Assembly (NCBI RefSeq): GCF_003018235.1
Contig: NZ_CP027437.1
DNA from: Escherichia coli
GTDB taxonomy: Bacteria > Pseudomonadota > Gammaproteobacteria > Enterobacterales > Enterobacteriaceae
Strand: one strand, 5' to 3'
DNA: 64,000 nt
The notes under the pieces: model-generated
Seen by the model: the letters and a program-made list of their open reading frames with translations, nothing else
What the model was told of the DNA's origin: nothing
Database searches by the model: none
Translations under genes and position numbers: made by a program
Shown here: piece by piece, positions 2,118 through 20,090 of the stretch
Layout: the number at the start of each line of letters is the position of its first letter
How positions within the stretch are numbered: position 1 is the stretch's first letter

Positions 2118-2219
2118 TAGTGGAATCGCAGTTTATCAGAGACAATGAATCGCTTATTCAGCGTCATCATCTTGTTGCGCTCCTTTCATGAGCTAAGCCA
2201 CATATTGCCACTGGCGCAA

Positions 2220-2420
2220 GGAGCGCGCAGGGGGAGGACAATCGCCTCCTCCCCCTGCCCCCCCGGGCTCTGGCGAACAAAATCGCCGCTGCGCGGTACC
2301 TTCAGCTTATCCCCTTCGGCTACCGGGTCGGGCGCGAGGAAACGTCCTTGTAAGACGCGCCCTCAGCCCACATCCATGTGGGCTGCCCCGGCCTTCGGGG
2401 AACGCTTCAGCGATTTTGAC
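2220..2420. other. GC-rich structured intergenic element with several hairpins (perfect 12-bp stem gcagggggagga/tcctccccctgc at 2226-2256; 10-bp stem cagcccacat/atgtgggctg at about 2354-2377)
   Basis: Seen in sequence. The 107-aa ORF 2145..2468 across it has no convincing RBS and is probably not coding. Confidence 0.3.
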
Positions 2421-2504
2421 GCCACCAACACCGGAGCTGTTTGCAAATCAAGTACACAAAATATCTAGTTCCTGACCTGACAACTTATATGCCATATCTG
2501 ATTT

Positions 2505-2588
2505 TTAAAATATCATCTTAAATACGCCAGTCACCACCAGTAGCCCAATCAGGAAAATAATCAATACAGCCCAGAGTATAATTTTCAT
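2505..2588 (-). CDS. yohP: Small hydrophobic membrane peptide YohP (27 aa, MKIILWAVLIIFLIGLLVVTGVFKMIF)
   Basis: Translated by hand from the minus strand (ATG complement at 2586-2588, TAA complement at 2505-2507); below the 60-aa cutoff of the ORF track; matches the remembered K-12 small protein. Confidence 0.8.
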   Translation of the reverse strand: MKIILWAVLIIFLIGLLVVTGVFKMIF

Positions 2589-2811
2589 TGGCGTTCCTTT
2601 ATTTGTGAGTGCTGAATAAGTATAGGAAAAAACGAAGCCCTTTGCCGTTATCCATAAACGATTAAGATAAATCGGAAGATATCATTCACTTAGTGTATAT
2701 TTTTCTGGATATGTCGTTTTATTGCTACTGATGTATTGCCACGCGGAACTAAAAAATATATCGCAACACACGGTAATCTCCGCGCACCTTTTCTTACCTG
2801 ATTATTCCCCC

Positions 2812-4248
2812 ATGAATCGTGATTCCTTTTATCCAGCCATCGCCTGTTTTCCGCTGTTACTGATGCTGACCGGGTGTGCGCCTATGCATGAAACCCGCCA
2901 GGCGTTAAGCCAGCAAACGCCCGCTGCACAAGTTGACACCGCATTACCCACGGCGCTGAAAAATGGTTGGCCAGACAGCCAATGGTGGCTGGAGTATCAC
3001 GATAATCAACTCACTTCATTAATTAACAATGCACTACAGAACGCACCGGATATGCAGGTGGCTGAACAGCGCATTCAGCTAGCTGAAGCCCAGGCGAAGG
3101 CAATTGCCACTCAGGATGGTCCGCAGATCGACTTTTCTGCGGATATGGAGCGGCAAAAAATGTCGGCAGAAGGGCTAATGGGGCCGTTTGCTCTGAACGA
3201 TCCGGCCGCAGGTACGACCGGTCCGTGGTACACCAACGGAACTTTTGGCTTAACGGCGGGCTGGCATCTCGATATCTGGGGAAAGAATCGGGCGGAGGTT
3301 ACTGCCCGCCTGGGTACGGTTAAAGCACGGGCGGCGGAACGCGAGCAAACCCGCCAATTGCTGGCTGGCAGCGTAGCCCGCCTGTACTGGGAGTGGCAAA
3401 CCCAGGCGGCGTTAAACACGGTCTTGCAGCAAATAGAAAAAGAGCAGAACACCATTATCGCGACCGATCGTCAGCTATATCAGAACGGGATTACTTCTTC
3501 AGTTGAAGGTGTGGAAACCGATATTAATGCCAGCAAAACCCGGCAGCAGCTCAACGATGTCGCGGGGAAAATGAAAATTATTGAGGCACGGTTAAGCGCA
3601 CTTACAAATCACCAGACAAAGTCATTGAAGCTTAAACCGGTCGCGTTGCCGAAAGTGGCAAGCCAGCTTCCTGATGAACTGGGGTACTCCTTACTGGCCC
3701 GGCGGGCAGATTTGCAGGCGGCGCACTGGTACGTTGAGTCATCGCTAAGCACTATTGATGCGGCAAAAGCGGCATTTTATCCTGACATCAACCTGATGGC
3801 CTTCCTGCAACAGGATGCGTTGCACTTAAGCGATCTGTTCCGTCATTCCGCGCAGCAAATGGGCGTTACGGCAGGCCTGACGCTACCCATTTTCGATAGT
3901 GGTCGTCTTAACGCCAATCTCGATATCGCAAAAGCCGAAAGCAACTTGTCTATCGCCAGCTACAACAAAGCGGTGGTTGAAGCGGTGAATGACGTGGCGC
4001 GGGCAGCCAGTCAGGTTCAGACACTGGCGGAGAAAAACCAGCATCAGGCGCAAATTGAGCGCGATGCCTTGCGTGTGGTAGGTCTTGCGCAGGCCCGCTT
4101 TAACGCGGGCATCATTGCTGGTTCCCGCGTCAGCGAAGCCAGAATCCCCGCGCTGCGTGAGCGGGCCAATGGCCTGTTATTGCAAGGGCAGTGGCTGGAT
4201 GCCTCCATTCAACTCACTGGTGCGTTGGGCGGGGGTTACAAACGCTGA
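2812..4248 (+). CDS. mdtQ: Outer-membrane efflux lipoprotein (OMF/NodT family); appears intact here
   Basis: ORF 2722..4248; start chosen at ATG 2812 (MNRDSFYPAIACFPLLLMLTGCAP) giving a lipobox LTGC; uninterrupted 478 codons. Confidence 0.85.
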   Translation: MNRDSFYPAIACFPLLLMLTGCAPMHETRQALSQQTPAAQVDTALPTALKNGWPDSQWWLEYHDNQLTSLINNALQNAPDMQVAEQRIQLAEAQAKAIATQDGPQIDFSADMERQKMSAEGLMGPFALNDPAAGTTGPWYTNGTFGLTAGWHLDIWGKNRAEVTARLGTVKARAAEREQTRQLLAGSVARLYWEWQTQAALNTVLQQIEKEQNTIIATDRQLYQNGITSSVEGVETDINASKTRQQLNDVAGKMKIIEARLSALTNHQTKSLKLKPVALPKVASQLPDELGYSLLARRADLQAAHWYVESSLSTIDAAKAAFYPDINLMAFLQQDALHLSDLFRHSAQQMGVTAGLTLPIFDSGRLNANLDIAKAESNLSIASYNKAVVEAVNDVARAASQVQTLAEKNQHQAQIERDALRVVGLAQARFNAGIIAGSRVSEARIPALRERANGLLLQGQWLDASIQLTGALGGGYKR

Positions 4249-4300
4249 TGATATGTGACTTCTATACTTAACGTTTATTCAGCGTTAAGTGGAGAACTCG

Positions 4301-5062
4301 ATGGCACAGGTAGCGATTATTACCGCCTCCGATTCGGGGATCGGCAAAGAGTGCGCGTTATTACTGGCGCAGCAAGGGTTTGATATTGGCATTACCTGGC
4401 ACTCAGATGAAGAAGGGGCAAAAGATACCGCGCGTGAGGTAGTTAGCCACGGCGTACGTGCGGAGATTGTGCAGCTGGATCTCGGTAAACTGCCAGAAGG
4501 TGCGCAGGCGCTGGAGAAACTCATTCAACGGCTGGGGCGTATTGATGTGCTGGTGAATAATGCTGGCGCAATGACCAAAGCGCCGTTTCTTGATATGGCT
4601 TTCGATGAGTGGCGCAAGATTTTTACCGTTGATGTCGATGGTGCATTTTTATGCTCACAAATTGCGGCCCGCCAGATGGTGAAACAAGGGCAGGGCGGTC
4701 GCATCATCAACATTACGTCGGTACATGAACATACGCCGCTGCCGGATGCCAGCGGCTACACAGCCGCTAAACATGCGCTCGGTGGGTTAACCAAAGCGAT
4801 GGCGCTGGAGCTGGTCAGGCATAAGATTTTGGTGAACGCAGTCGCGCCTGGGGCGATCGCCACGCCAATGAATGGCATGGATGACAGCGACGTGAAGCCC
4901 GACGCGGAGCCTTCGATTCCTCTGCGGCGTTTTGGCGCAACGCATGAGATTGCCAGCCTGGTAGCGTGGCTGTGCTCAGAGGGCGCAAATTACACCACCG
5001 GGCAGTCGTTGATAGTGGATGGCGGCTTTATGTTGGCGAATCCGCAGTTCAACCCAGAATAG
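4301..5062 (+). CDS. yohF: Short-chain dehydrogenase/reductase family oxidoreductase
   Basis: ORF 4289..5062; start at ATG 4301 (MAQVAIITASDSGIGKE); Rossmann TASDSGIG and SDR motifs. Confidence 0.9.
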   Translation: MAQVAIITASDSGIGKECALLLAQQGFDIGITWHSDEEGAKDTAREVVSHGVRAEIVQLDLGKLPEGAQALEKLIQRLGRIDVLVNNAGAMTKAPFLDMAFDEWRKIFTVDVDGAFLCSQIAARQMVKQGQGGRIINITSVHEHTPLPDASGYTAAKHALGGLTKAMALELVRHKILVNAVAPGAIATPMNGMDDSDVKPDAEPSIPLRRFGATHEIASLVAWLCSEGANYTTGQSLIVDGGFMLANPQFNPE

Positions 5063-5102
5063 CGCAGTGAGGTGCGTGGTTATTTCAATGGGTAAAATTT
5101 TG

Positions 5103-5124
5103 GTAGGCATGATAAGACGCACAA
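5103..5124. repeat. Left half of a REP palindromic unit (gtaggcatgataagacgc) split by the IS insertion
   Basis: Together with 6562..6576 (gcgtcgcatcaggca) it reconstitutes a REP-type palindrome once the IS and one ACAA copy are removed. Confidence 0.65.
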
Positions 5125-5654
5125 TGAACTGCACCCCAAATGTTGGACATAATCTGACATCTGAAGGTGCAGTTTATGAAACATTCATTTGAAGTAAAAC
5201 TTGCCGCTGTAAATCATTACCTGGCCGGTCATGCAGGCATCATTTCTACGGCAAAACTCTTTCAACTTTCTCACACCAGCCTCTCACACTGGATTAATCT
5301 TTTTCTTCTTCACGGTCCTCGGGCACTGGATTGCAGACACAAGCGTAGCTATTCTCCTGAAGATAAACTTTGCGTGGTTCTTTATGCTCTCGGGCATTCT
5401 GAGTCTCTACCCCGGGTAGCTGCCCGGTTTAACATTCCCAGCCACAACACGGTTAAAAACTGGATAAAAGGCTACCGCAAATCTGGTAATGAGGTCTTTA
5501 TCAGGCGCAGGAAGGAGAAAAGCATGACCCGTTCTGATGATACCCATGAAAACGAGGCAAACATGACGCCGGAAGAGATGAAGAATGAGCTGCGTTATCT
5601 TCGCGCAGAAAATGCATATCTGAAAGCCATGCAGGAGCATCTCCTGGAAAAAAA

Positions 5655-6556
<902 letters not shown>

Positions 6557-14491: not shown

Positions 14492-15649
14492 GTGACTTAT
14501 CTACGTATTAATCCTGTTCTGGCGCTGCTGCTGTTGCTGACGGCAATCGCAGCAGCGCTGCCGTTTATCAGCTACGCGCCTAATCGTTTAGTCTCGGGTG
14601 AAGGGCGACATCTCTGGCAGCTGTGGCCGCAAACGATCTGGATGCTGGTGGGCTTTGGTTGCGCCTGGCTGACAGCCTGTTTTATTCCCGCTAAAAAAGG
14701 CAGCATTTTTGCACTCATTCTGGCGCAATTCGTCTTCGTATTGCTGGTGTGGGGAGCTGGAAAGGCGGCGACCCAACTGGCGCAAAATGGCAGTTCGCTG
14801 GCGCGTACCAGCCTCGGCAGTGGTTTCTGGCTGGCTGCGGCGCTGGCATTGCTGGCCTGTAGCGATGCCATCCGCCGAATCTCCACGCATCCGCTGTGGC
14901 GCTGGTTGTTGCATATGCAGATTGCCATTATTCCGCTGTGGTTGCTGTACTCCGGCACGCTTAACGATCTCTCACTAATGAAAGAATACGCCAACCGTCA
15001 GGATGTGTTTGACGACGCGCTGGCACAACATCTGACGTTGCTGTTTGGTGCGGTGCTGCCTGCGTTAGTGATTGGTGTGCCGTTGGGCATCTGGTGCTAC
15101 TTTTCCACCGCGCGGCAGGGGGCGATTTTTTCTCTGCTCAATGTCATTCAGACCGTGCCTTCGGTGGCGCTCTTTGGCCTGCTGATTGCGCCGCTTGCCG
15201 GACTGGTTACGGCCTTTCCGTGGCTGGGGAAGCTTGGCATAGCAGGAACCGGAATGACACCCGCACTGATTGCGCTGGTGCTCTATGCCTTGCTGCCGCT
15301 GGTGCGCGGCGTGGTAGTCGGCTTGAACCAGATCCCGCGCGATGTGCTGGAGAGCGCCAGAGCGATGGGCATGAGCGGGGCGCAGCGTTTCCTGCATGTT
15401 CAGTTACCGCTGGCGTTACCGGTATTTCTGCGCAGCCTGCGGGTGGTGATGGTGCAAACTGTAGGCATGGCGGTGATTGCGGCGTTAATCGGCGCAGGCG
15501 GTTTTGGTGCGCTGGTTTTCCAGGGGCTGCTAAGCAGCGCCATTGATTTAGTGTTGCTGGGGGTGATCCCGGTAATTGTTCTGGCGGTGCTGATCGATGC
15601 GCTGTTCGATTTACTTATCGCACTGTTGAAGGTGAAACGTAATGATTGA
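14492..15649 (+). CDS. yehY: ABC transporter permease
   Basis: ORF track; polytopic membrane protein with ABC permease signature region. Confidence 0.92.
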
Positions 15650-16568
15650 ATTTAGCCATGTCAGCAAACTGTTCGGCGCACAAAAAGCCGTTAACGATCT
15701 CAATCTCAATTTTCAGGAAGGGAGTTTTTCGGTGCTGATTGGCACATCTGGCTCCGGCAAATCCACCACCCTGAAAATGATTAACCGCCTGGTGGAACAT
15801 GACAGCGGAGAGATCCGCTTTGCCGGAGAAGAAATTCGCTCGCTGCCAGTACTGGAGTTGCGCCGCCGTATGGGCTATGCCATTCAATCTATTGGCCTGT
15901 TTCCCCACTGGAGCGTGGCACAAAACATTGCCACCGTGCCGCAATTACAAAAATGGTCGCGGGCGAGGATTGACGATCGTATCGACGAATTAATGGCGCT
16001 ACTGGGGCTGGAGTCAAATTTGCGTGAGCGTTATCCGCATCAGCTTTCCGGTGGTCAGCAGCAACGTGTGGGAGTGGCGCGCGCACTGGCTGCCGATCCG
16101 CAAGTCTTACTGATGGATGAACCTTTTGGCGCACTGGACCCGGTAACGCGCGGCGCGTTGCAACAAGAGATGACGCGCATTCACCGTTTGCTGGGGCGTA
16201 CCATTGTGCTGGTCACTCATGATATTGATGAGGCGCTACGGCTGGCAGAACATCTGGTATTGATGGATCACGGTGAAGTGGTGCAGCAGGGCAATCCGCT
16301 GACGATGCTGACTCGTCCGGCGAATGATTTTGTCCGCCAGTTTTTTGGACGTAGTGAACTGGGTGTGCGCCTGCTTTCGTTACGTAGTGTGGCGGATTAT
16401 GTGCGTCGCGAAGAACGGGCAGAAGGTGAGGCGCTGGTAGAAGAGATGACGCTACGCGATGCGCTCTCCCTGTTTGTTGCGCGGGGATGTGAAGTGCTGC
16501 CGGTGGTGAACACGCAGGGCCAGCCTTGCGGCACGCTGCATTTTCAGGATCTGCTGGAGGAGGCGTAA
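15642..16568 (+). CDS. yehX: ABC transporter ATP-binding protein
   Basis: Walker [10 protein letters not shown], signature LSGGQQQR, Walker B LLMDEP; overlaps the yehY stop. Confidence 0.93.
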
Positions 16569-16572
16569 GCGT

Positions 16573-17304
16573 ATGAAGATGTTGCGCGATCCGCTGTTCT
16601 GGCTCATTGCTTTGTTTGTGGCACTGATTTTCTGGCTGCCTTACAGCCAGCCGCTGTTTGCTGCCTTGTACCCACAACTGCCACGACCCGTTTATCAGCA
16701 AGAAAGTTTTGCAGCTCTGGCACTGGCTCATTTCTGGCTGGTGGGAATTTCGAGTTTGTTTGCGGTGATCATTGGTACTGGTGCCGGAATTGCTGTCACT
16801 CGCCCGTGGGGCGCGGAATTTCGCCCACTGGTGGAAACTATTGCCGCCGTTGGACAGACTTTTCCGCCCGTCGCGGTGCTGGCGATCGCCGTTCCGGTGA
16901 TCGGGTTTGGTCTGCAACCAGCGATTATCGCCTTGATCCTTTACGGTGTGCTGCCCGTCCTGCAGGCGACACTTGCCGGGCTGGGAGCGATTGATGCCAG
17001 CGTGACAGAAGTTGCGAAAGGTATGGGAATGAGTCGTGGTCAGCGACTGCGTAAGGTCGAGCTACCGCTGGCGGCTCCGGTGATTCTGGCGGGCGTGCGA
17101 ACTTCGGTGATTATCAACATTGGTACGGCGACGATCGCCTCAACGGTAGGGGCCAGCACGCTGGGTACGCCCATCATCATCGGGCTTAGCGGATTTAATA
17201 CCGCGTATGTGATCCAGGGGGCGTTACTGGTGGCACTGGCGGCGATCATCGCAGACCGCCTGTTTGAAAGGCTGGTGCAGGCGCTTAGCCAGCACGCAAA
17301 ATAA
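16573..17304 (+). CDS. yehW: ABC transporter permease
   Basis: ORF track 16573..17304; membrane permease. Confidence 0.92.
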
Positions 17305-17392
17305 AGGTATAACCTGCGAGCATGACGCCACCAATTCCGCCTAACGCCATAAACAGGAACAGGGCGATGACCCCAATTTTAGCTATGCGCAT
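17285..17392 (-). CDS. yohO: Small membrane peptide YohO (35 aa, [35 protein letters not shown])
   Basis: Hand-translated from the minus strand; the 3' end overlaps the last 20 nt of convergent yehW; below the ORF-track cutoff. Confidence 0.8.
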
Positions 17393-17451
17393 AATGCACT
17401 CCTTATGTTAACGAAAGGATTGTACAGTAAAGCGCATTTGTTAACGAATCA

Positions 17452-18183
17452 TTAAATGCCGAGTGGGAAAATATCATAGCCTTGTTCTTGCCAACTGGTG
17501 AGTTGCTGTTGTTGGGCGGAGGTTCGATTTTCACCGCACCACACCAGCAATGTACGGCCTTCGAACAGTTCAGGGCGTAGTTGATTGAGCGAGTGGGCGA
17601 GGACATCAATGCGCCATCCTTGTTGACTGGCAATCCAGCCCTCCAGCCACAGACGGGTGGTATCGTGAATATTCCAGCCAACCACCAGCGCATCTTTACC
17701 CTGTTTTTTACGTGCCGAAGCCAGACAGATGGCGATGTAGTTGATCAGTACGCCGTCGAGGATCGCCAGCAGCGCCTGGAGAGTCGGTTGTTGGCACTGA
17801 AGCCGTCGGCGCAGAGGAATAAACAGATGCGTGGTGAGCGTCTGGGCGGGGTAATCCTGACCGCGCTCTTTGATCCACGTTCGCAGGCTATGCAGATTGC
17901 CGCTTTGCAAGTAAGTCAGTAATGTTTCTTGCTGATCGCGCCAGCCGTTCTGCACATCAACATTTTCATTACTGAGCAGCATTTTAACTTTGCTGACCTG
18001 CACGCCGTTGTCGATCCAGCGTTTGATCTCGCGGATCCGGTCAATATCGGCATCGTTGAACAGCCGATGACCGCCGTCTGTCCGTTGCGGTTTCAGCAAT
18101 CCGTAACGCCTCTGCCACGCGCGTAACGTGACAGGGTTAATATCACAAAGCAACGCCACTTCACCAATTGTGTAAAGCGCCAT
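17452..18183 (-). CDS. mlrA: MerR-family transcriptional regulator
   Basis: ORF track; N-terminal MerR helix-turn-helix (MALYTIGEVALLCDINPVTLRAWQRRYGLL). Confidence 0.92.
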   Translation of the reverse strand: MALYTIGEVALLCDINPVTLRAWQRRYGLLKPQRTDGGHRLFNDADIDRIREIKRWIDNGVQVSKVKMLLSNENVDVQNGWRDQQETLLTYLQSGNLHSLRTWIKERGQDYPAQTLTTHLFIPLRRRLQCQQPTLQALLAILDGVLINYIAICLASARKKQGKDALVVGWNIHDTTRLWLEGWIASQQGWRIDVLAHSLNQLRPELFEGRTLLVWCGENRTSAQQQQLTSWQEQGYDIFPLGI

Positions 18184-18404
18184 CGTCTCACCCTTGCTCG
18201 CGAGGTCCCGGTTTAACTTTAGACGCAGTTTTGCGAACCAGGTAGTTTTGCCCGTTTTTTGTGCATTTATAGGGTGATTTTATTTTTGCCAGGCGATTTT
18301 GAGTGATCGTACTCACGAATTCTCATTTTTCTGCAAGAGTTCAAAGAAAGTTAAACGCAGGCAATGTATGTTACGCGTTTTAAAGGGAAGTGTGGTTTGC
18401 GGGT

Positions 18405-20090
18405 ATGTACGATTTTAATCTGGTGTTGCTGCTGCTTCAGCAGATGTGCGTTTTTTTAGTCATTGCGTGGTTAATGAGTAAAACGCCATTATTCATACCG
18501 TTAATGCAGGTCACGGTTCGTCTGCCGCATAAATTTCTCTGCTACATCGTCTTTTCCATCTTCTGCATCATGGGCACCTGGTTTGGGTTGCACATTGACG
18601 ATTCTATTGCCAATACCCGTGCGATAGGCGCGGTAATGGGCGGCTTACTCGGCGGTCCGGTCGTCGGTGGGCTGGTTGGCCTGACCGGCGGGTTACATCG
18701 ATATTCGATGGGGGGCATGACCGCGCTAAGTTGCATGATCTCGACCATCGTTGAAGGATTGCTCGGCGGCCTGGTACACAGCATCCTGATCCGTCGCGGG
18801 CGCACTGATAAAGTCTTTAACCCCATTACCGCTGGTGCCGTCACGTTCGTCGCTGAAATGGTGCAAATGCTGATCATCCTGGCGATCGCCCGACCTTATG
18901 AAGATGCGGTGCGTCTGGTGAGTAATATTGCTGCGCCAATGATGGTCACCAATACCGTCGGCGCGGCGCTGTTTATGCGTATATTGCTCGATAAACGCGC
19001 GATGTTTGAAAAATACACTTCAGCTTTTTCTGCCACTGCGCTGAAAGTGGCGGCCTCGACGGAAGGCATTTTGCGCCAGGGATTTAACGAAGTGAACAGC
19101 ATGAAAGTGGCACAGGTGCTGTATCAGGAGCTGGATATTGGTGCAGTCGCGATTACCGATCGAGAGAAATTGCTGGCCTTTACCGGAATTGGTGACGACC
19201 ACCATTTACCCGGCAAACCGATTTCTTCGACTTACACCTTAAAAGCGATTGAAACCGGTGAAGTGGTCTACGCTGATGGCAACGAAGTACCTTATCGTTG
19301 CTCTTTGCATCCGCAATGCAAACTGGGGTCGACGCTGGTAATTCCGTTGCGTGGTGAAAATCAGCGGGTGATGGGCACCATCAAATTGTATGAAGCCAAA
19401 AACCGTTTATTTAGTTCAATCAACCGCACGCTGGGCGAGGGGATTGCGCAACTGCTTTCGGCGCAGATCCTCGCCGGGCAATATGAGCGGCAAAAAGCGA
19501 TGCTCACCCAGTCAGAGATCAAACTGCTTCACGCCCAGGTGAACCCCCATTTTTTGTTTAATGCGCTTAACACCATTAAAGCGGTGATCCGTCGCGACAG
19601 CGAACAGGCCAGCCAGCTGGTGCAGTATCTTTCCACTTTTTTCCGCAAAAACTTAAAGCGGCCTTCGGAGTTTGTTACTCTCGCCGACGAAATTGAACAT
19701 GTGAATGCTTATCTGCAAATTGAAAAGGCGCGCTTCCAGTCGCGGTTGCAGGTCAACATTGCTATTCCGCAAGAATTATCCCAGCAGCAATTGCCCGCGT
19801 TTACCCTGCAACCGATAGTGGAAAACGCCATTAAACATGGGACATCACAACTGCTGGATACAGGGCGAGTGGCAATCAGCGCCCGACGTGAGGGGCAACA
19901 TTTGATGCTGGAGATCGAAGACAATGCCGGTTTGTATCAACCGGTAACCAATGCCAGTGGGCTGGGGATGAATCTGGTGGATAAGCGTTTACGTGAACGG
20001 TTTGGCGATGACTATGGGATAAGCGTCGCCTGTGAGCCTGATAGTTACACCCGAATAACGTTACGACTACCATGGAGGGACGAGGCATGA
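18405..20090 (+). CDS. btsS: LytS-type sensor histidine kinase (5TM Lyt domain, GAF, HisKA_3, HATPase)
   Basis: ORF 18390..20090; start at ATG 18405 ([13 protein letters not shown]); NPHFLFN histidine motif. Confidence 0.92.

Follow-up and report, generated by a model that had tools for sequence, protein, structure and literature searches.

Conservation, control region and tail-to-tail overlap with yehW of the small membrane peptide gene yohO of Escherichia coli

Introduction

In Escherichia coli, KdpF, AcrZ, MgtS and CydX are small membrane proteins that modulate larger membrane proteins. YohO, the product of the small gene analyzed here, resembles these proteins in its size class (30–50 amino acids), in its single transmembrane helix, which in the case of YohO is predicted, and in a conserved face of small residues suited to helix packing. 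In contrast, none of the four shows sequence similarity to YohO, and yohO, unlike the genes for KdpF and CydX, is no part of a candidate partner's operon.

A second group of described systems with which the yohO locus can be compared is that of the convergent excludons. Like these, yohO and its neighbour yehW converge and their transcripts overlap, and a catalogue of 165 convergent excludons, each detected in 50% or more of 58 RNA-seq samples of E. coli MG1655, explicitly names the pair (ExcludonFinder 2025, PMC12288877). The functional outcome that defines an excludon is mutually exclusive expression, brought about by interference or by RNase III, whereas the yohO–yehW pair is known here by its transcript overlap, and yohO occurs without this partner in three lineages.

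The gene itself, the translation of its product and the overlap of its transcript with that of yehW have all been described publicly, and these features therefore have to be regarded as already known. Our comparative analysis adds modest refinements, namely a phase-locked overlap in 105 of the 106 species listed, a junction apparently lacking a conserved hairpin, a promoter-like block with two repeats upstream of yohO, and the occurrence of yohO without the yeh operon. These results leave the current understanding unchanged; by pointing to purifying selection, to a conserved control region belonging to yohO itself and to independence from the neighbouring transporter operon, they narrow the options for YohO function and could guide targeted work on it. 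The account that we consider very probable combines a known gene, yohO, encoding a translated membrane helix, with transcription from its own promoter, packing of the helix against another one, and an overlap that results from two fixed reading frames.

Results and Discussion

The open reading frame at 17285–17392 is yohO

The window analyzed here is a 64-kb stretch (64,000 nucleotides) of E. coli DNA, in which an ORF listing, the NCBIfam model NF010225 and the RefSeq entry WP_001216963.1 all place a coding sequence of 35 codons plus a TAA stop at positions 17285–17392 of the minus strand. As read from the sequence, it starts with ATG and its stop codon occupies positions 17287–17285. According to the ORF listing and the RefSeq annotation, it converges with yehW (16573–17304, plus strand; TAA stop read at 17302–17304), the last gene of osmF-yehYXW, whose product of 243 amino acids is a glycine betaine ABC transporter permease (EcoCyc transporter table). 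The upstream neighbour, mlrA (17452–18183, ORF listing and RefSeq), lies on the same strand as yohO.

Because as many as 75 ORFs of at least 20 amino acids cross the interval 15000–20000, an ORF of 35 codons is unremarkable by its size, and the case for yohO accordingly rests on the NCBIfam equivalog, the RefSeq annotation and coding-type conservation. The translation product matches the NCBIfam equivalog NF010225 (“protein YohO”) over profile positions 1–35 of 35 with 80.1 bits (E = 8.8e-23), the curated cutoff of this model being 57 bits. A Pfam search with YohO assigned no family, and its sole match was a sub-threshold one to B12D. At the nucleotide level, the 701-nt region 17000–17700 was compared with 5426 complete E. 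coli genomes and matched 5423 of them, with 100% identity to strain 300709 and 99.3% to K-12; among the matches listed, yehW and yohO are annotated under every one, and mlrA wherever it is spanned. The RefSeq annotations of K-12 MG1655 and of strain 300709 contain the same yohO coding sequence under the same accession (WP_001216963.1), and the gene order is likewise the same in these two genomes, with osmF-yehY-yehX-yehW on one strand and yohO-mlrA on the opposite one, followed by btsS-btsR.

Taken together, the equivalog match, the annotated 701-nt matches and the accession identical to that of K-12 identify the window as E. coli chromosome and the ORF at 17285–17392 as yohO, a known conserved gene of the Enterobacteriaceae. 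An earlier note on this DNA had read this minus-strand ORF of 35 amino acids as the small membrane peptide gene yohO, which converges with yehW and overlaps the last 20 nt of it; the ORF listing, the NF010225 score and RefSeq bear out the assignment, and positions 17285–17304 are indeed common to both coding sequences. Compared with the YohO of K-12 (NF010225/PRK13681), the peptide has an identical amino-acid sequence, the gene has the same position between mlrA and yehW and the overlap has the same 20 nt, so that there is no difference at the protein level. The peptide thus has the features of its family: an HMM score above the cutoff, a length of about 35 amino acids with one predicted helix bearing the common core, and the orthologous mlrA–yehW position.

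The literature also speaks for a translated product, so that the absence of a translation signal over 17285–17392, named in the earlier note as a counter-indication, is not borne out. Ribo-seq coverage of yohO has been reported (as given in a secondary citation), and native YohO was detected by top-down mass spectrometry in a 2025 proteomics study, with a sequence coverage below 50%. YohO is furthermore cited as membrane-bound (Hemm 2008, as relayed by a secondary citation). In the genome-reduced strain DGF-298, yohO is removed by a deletion of 29 kb and is hence dispensable there.

YohO is a conserved, predicted single-helix peptide

Relatives of YohO were collected by two routes. A HMMER search over 1.84 billion representative proteins (E ≤ 0.001) yielded just 17 relatives, all of which have a common 11-residue core and several of which are frameshifted or chimeric gene calls. 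Genome contigs were also searched with a degenerate DNA pattern for G-I-x-G-V-M-L-A-G-Y, which returned at least 120 loci, 118 of them, among the matches listed, from Enterobacterales. Two pattern matches, in Pedococcus (L070) and in Spirochaetes (L088), were dropped as chance hits inside large unrelated ORFs. Among the matches listed, yohO is found in Escherichia, Salmonella, Citrobacter, Enterobacter, Klebsiella, Raoultella, Kluyvera and Kosakonia, in Leclercia, Lelliottia, Siccibacter, Franconibacter, Mangrovibacter, Erwinia and Sodalis, and in other genera.

The ORF has a length of 34–38 codons in at least 114 species, whose 114 genes all differ in DNA sequence and encode 71 different proteins. 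When the codons fixed by the search pattern were left out, the column entropy at codon positions 1, 2 and 3 was 0.87, 0.33 and 1.29 (114 matches listed). Among the matches listed, pN/pS amounted to 0.43 for codons 2–18 and to 0.25 for codons 29–32, values to be read with synonymous sites near saturation, and the substitutions replace hydrophobic residues by hydrophobic ones. These observations show the YohO peptide to be under purifying selection.

In an alignment of 27 YohO sequences, the residues G19, I20, G22, V23, M24, L25, G27 and Y28 are invariant, an invariance that arises partly by ascertainment since 26 of the 27 sequences stem from the pattern search; the same core was obtained in the independent HMMER search. 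The N-terminus is short and basic (M-R/K-x-x-K), and the GRAVY value of the peptide is 1.58. With the 27-sequence alignment as input, AlphaFold2 returned one helix spanning residues 3–34 (mean pLDDT 87.9), and YohO is thus predicted to be a single hydrophobic helix. A search of the PDB returned no chain matching YohO. The invariant small-residue face (G18/G19, G21/G22, A26/G27) would, judged from sequence only, pack against another transmembrane helix, which could belong to YohO itself or to a larger membrane protein modulated by YohO; such a partner is probably not specific to YehW.

A promoter-like block with two direct repeats precedes yohO

To compare the region upstream of yohO across genera, we aligned the window with 28 genome loci (29 sequences in total). 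A Shine-Dalgarno sequence, AAGGAG, is read at 17399–17404 (minus strand), 6 nt upstream of the ATG, and its AGGAG is conserved in 80% or more of the 29 sequences of this alignment; yohO is translated from this strong site. Within the 59-nt gap between mlrA and yohO, the alignment reveals a −10-like hexamer, TACAAT (17419–17424, minus strand), which reads TATAAT in most genera. A two-hexamer promoter scan called no promoter for yohO, and this hexamer was missed because no good −35 hexamer lies at a distance of 16–18 nt.

The −10-like hexamer is flanked by a direct repeat, TTCGTTAACA, which was identified by repeat search and alignment. Its upstream copy (17439–17448, minus strand) lies over the −35 region and its downstream copy (17406–17415, minus strand) between the −10-like hexamer and the Shine-Dalgarno sequence, the two 10-nt copies being 100% identical and 33 nt apart. 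Only three exact copies of TTCGTTAACA are present in the 64-kb window, two of which are these upstream of yohO, and the TTAACA core of the repeat is conserved at both positions across genera. The repeats may represent a candidate operator for some regulator. In the majority of genera, the upstream copy also falls within a palindrome, TTAATG-N3-CATTAA.

In Shigella flexneri, yohO mRNA is reported to be decreased by log2 2.96 (about 8-fold) without oxygen, the columns for the fnr mutant containing no listed value. Connecting yohO with an oxygen-responsive regulator, for instance ArcA, is speculation, and our literature search retrieved no paper tying yohO to ArcA in bacteria.

The promoter-like block is kept in Superficieibacter, Entomohabitans, Intestinirhabdus and Mangrovibacter, in which mlrA is not upstream, and this retention of a −10-type block suggests that yohO is most likely transcribed from a promoter of its own within the 59 nt that follow mlrA. 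A different reading puts yohO second, after mlrA, in a common operon, with yohO expression following that of mlrA, as the common strand, the short distance of 59 nt and the lack of a strong terminator call after mlrA would allow. The TATAAT-type −10 sequence kept in the gap and the persistence of yohO together with the block in genera without an upstream mlrA make this operon reading distinctly unlikely, and mlrA read-through is a possible extra source of yohO transcript besides the proposed promoter.

Two further observations concern this region. Positions 17397–17422 form an imperfect palindrome (CACTCCTTATGTTAAC / GTTAACGAAAGGATTG), in which an upstream UCCUU could pair in RNA with the AAGGA of the yohO Shine-Dalgarno sequence. 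This pairing would be limited to transcripts starting upstream of the proposed promoter, as in the case of mlrA read-through, and the upstream UCCUU is partially conserved across genera. In addition, a genomic SELEX study reports a binding peak of the RpoE holoenzyme in the yehW region, at K-12 W3110 coordinate 2214150, given as “inside a gene” with the neighbours yohO > yehW < yehX (PMC5493296).

The overlap with yehW has a constant phase across Enterobacteriaceae

According to the ORF coordinates, the coding sequences of yohO and yehW overlap tail to tail by 20 nt, stop codons included (17285–17304, both strands). We measured this overlap at loci with a near-complete yehW (L003–L122) after extending both genes to their stop codons. 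Among the matches listed, it amounts to 17, 20, 23 or 26 nt, with one relative phase throughout, in 105 of 106 species, the 26-nt class being the most frequent (61 species), followed by the 20-nt (38 species), 23-nt (5 species) and 17-nt (one species) classes. The sole exception among these matches is Sodalis, where a gap of 10 nt separates the two genes. Given the constant phase, insertions and deletions within the overlap have occurred in multiples of three, and the tail-to-tail arrangement is ancestral to the Enterobacteriaceae.

As deduced from the coordinates, the wobble base of each gene is the second codon base of the other. Mean pairwise identity of YohO inside the overlap is 0.76 in the 20-nt class and 0.96 in the 26-nt class; for YehW, the corresponding values are 0.62 and 0.66. 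Immediately ahead of the overlap, the conservation of YehW is lower still (0.54 and 0.45, respectively). Those within the overlap are hence more conserved than those just upstream, as if hitch-hiking on the coding constraint of YohO.

As the YohO tail is more conserved than that of YehW in this segment, the most economical interpretation is that the overlap sequence is held by selection on YohO while a tolerant YehW tail rides along, which would explain the persistence of the overlap. The overlap would then mainly be kept by two fixed frames, a strongly selected YohO C-terminus and, across from it, the tolerant end of YehW. A phase-locked and nearly universal overlap could alternatively reflect selection on the overlap itself.

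We also asked how transcription might end at this junction. A promoter and terminator consensus scan gave no convincing site for either yohO or yehW and none at the junction. A terminator-like match inside yohO (17375–17360) was rejected, its score falling within the range of shuffled sequences. With regard to a terminator at the overlap that would be common to both genes or act in both directions, the hairpin formed by the E. coli sequence around the stop codon of yohO is weak and lacks a U-tract, and folds of the two strands of the junction gave z-scores of −0.96 and −1.68, not better than those of shuffled sequences. RNAalifold consensus folds of the 20-nt and 26-nt classes reached just −2 to −5 kcal/mol; those of the 23-nt class (5 sequences) reached −14 to −18 kcal/mol, with no common hairpin at the junction. 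From these folds, the junction appears to be free of a conserved terminator hairpin, in which case the yohO and yehW mRNAs would each have to run into the other gene, making some transcriptional interference or antisense pairing likely when both genes are on.

yohO is retained without its neighbours

Among the matches listed, yohO adjoins yehW in nearly all Enterobacteriaceae sampled, and our synteny table places mlrA upstream of yohO in most genera, though not in all. In Superficieibacter, Mangrovibacter, Entomohabitans, Intestinirhabdus and Klebsiella spallanzanii, mlrA was not found upstream and the yohO–yehW pair is intact (the loci lacking mlrA are L007, L010, L036, L038, L096, L102, L106 and L121), indicating that the association of yohO with yehW is closer than that with mlrA.

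At the level of the fetched loci, yohO occurs without an adjacent osmF-yehYXW in three lineages (L066, L064 and L069). In Escherichia sp. MOD1-EC7003 (L066, locus 2120–5880), dld and bglX are followed by yohO and mlrA, osmF-yehYXW being missing; bglX ends at 4483, yohO and mlrA come directly after it, and the YohO peptide is identical. This arrangement has the appearance of a natural deletion that took away the overlapping partner of yohO. In a Cedecea-like group, yohO converges with bglX at a distance of about 230 nt, and the Erwinia gene is flanked by a lipoprotein-like gene on one side and an MFS transporter gene on the other. The promoter-like block, which was aligned for L064 and L069 only, is largely kept in the former and not evident in the latter. 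Judged at this locus level, yohO appears to be independent of the neighbouring transporter operon.

These findings bear on the idea that YohO specifically serves the OsmF-YehYXW ABC transporter as an accessory subunit or a regulator, in the manner of KdpF for KdpABC or AcrZ for AcrB, so that synteny would reflect a physical partnership with the permeases YehW or YehY. The retention of yohO beside yehW in Superficieibacter, Mangrovibacter, Entomohabitans and Intestinirhabdus, even without mlrA, is what such a partnership would lead one to expect. Against it, yohO lies on the opposite strand and has a separate promoter-like block, and it is thus not co-transcribed with the yeh operon; it is kept without an adjacent yeh operon in Escherichia sp., where the peptide is identical, in the Cedecea-like group and in Erwinia; and the PDB search offers no matching chain. 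The locus thus shows neither the operon co-transcription of a KdpF-type subunit nor, among the fetched loci, a strict co-occurrence with adjacent osmF-yehYXW, and we consider a dedicated transporter subunit very unlikely.

Does the overlap couple the two genes?

The earlier note had further suggested that the antisense overlap could couple the expression of yohO and of the osmoprotectant transporter operon. Because the two coding sequences share 20 nt, full-length yohO and yehW mRNAs must overlap, and the pair has the structure of a convergent excludon, i.e. convergent neighbours with overlapping transcripts. The part of the suggestion that holds is the arrangement: transcript overlap is on record, the overlap is conserved in phase and the junction apparently lacks a conserved terminator hairpin. 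The retention of yohO without the yeh operon speaks against an obligatory connection, and coupling of yohO and transporter-operon expression is plausible but unproven.

In its stronger form, coupling would make the locus a functional excludon, in which yohO and osmF-yehYXW are reciprocally regulated via convergent transcription or via RNase III cleavage of paired 3′ ends, strong expression of one gene reducing that of the other. The entry of the pair in the ExcludonFinder list, the same-phase overlap in 105 of the 106 species (matches listed) and the apparent lack of a conserved terminator hairpin between the genes are all compatible with this possibility. The listing criterion, however, is transcript overlap only, which physically overlapping coding sequences satisfy almost automatically, and in the literature we found neither an expression test nor anticorrelated expression reported for the yohO–yehW pair. 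In addition, the peptide is kept in L066, L064 and L069 with no adjacent yeh operon, and constraint on the YohO tail accounts for conservation of the overlap. A functional excludon is therefore, in our view, unlikely.

A broader alternative would have the overlap itself selected, with yohO and osmF-yehYXW tuning each other through convergent transcription or 3′-end pairing or, alternatively, with YohO acting on YehW or YehY, and with an oxygen-responsive regulator exerting control through the conserved TTCGTTAACA repeats; we regard this combination as quite improbable. Under the preferred reading of two fixed reading frames, the overlap may still lead to a degree of interference between the two genes during simultaneous transcription, any regulatory use of which would go beyond the present data.

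A short and very hydrophobic peptide, predicted to form a single helix and covered at the 3′ end of its gene by an antisense transcript, also calls to mind a type I toxin-antitoxin-like module, in which a toxic peptide, small and hydrophobic, is kept in check through an antisense RNA that overlaps and controls its mRNA. The yohO locus is unlike hok, ldr, ibs and tisB in several respects. No Rfam antitoxin or small-RNA family was found in 16500–18500 at E ≤ 1, and the antisense partner is no dedicated small RNA: the antisense strand carries the yehW coding sequence, and the transcript in question is the end of the protein-coding yehW mRNA. Moreover, yohO is single-copy and syntenic over many genera, with signs of purifying selection, its strong Shine-Dalgarno sequence is unobstructed, and native YohO is detectable in growing cells. 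A toxin-antitoxin function is thus extremely improbable.

Finally, in Kluyvera genomosp. 3, Leclercia adecarboxylata NCTC13032 and one Trabulsiella strain (L076, L079 and L091), the tblastn match to YehW is partial, which suggests that yehW has been disrupted or rearranged in these genomes beside an intact yohO.
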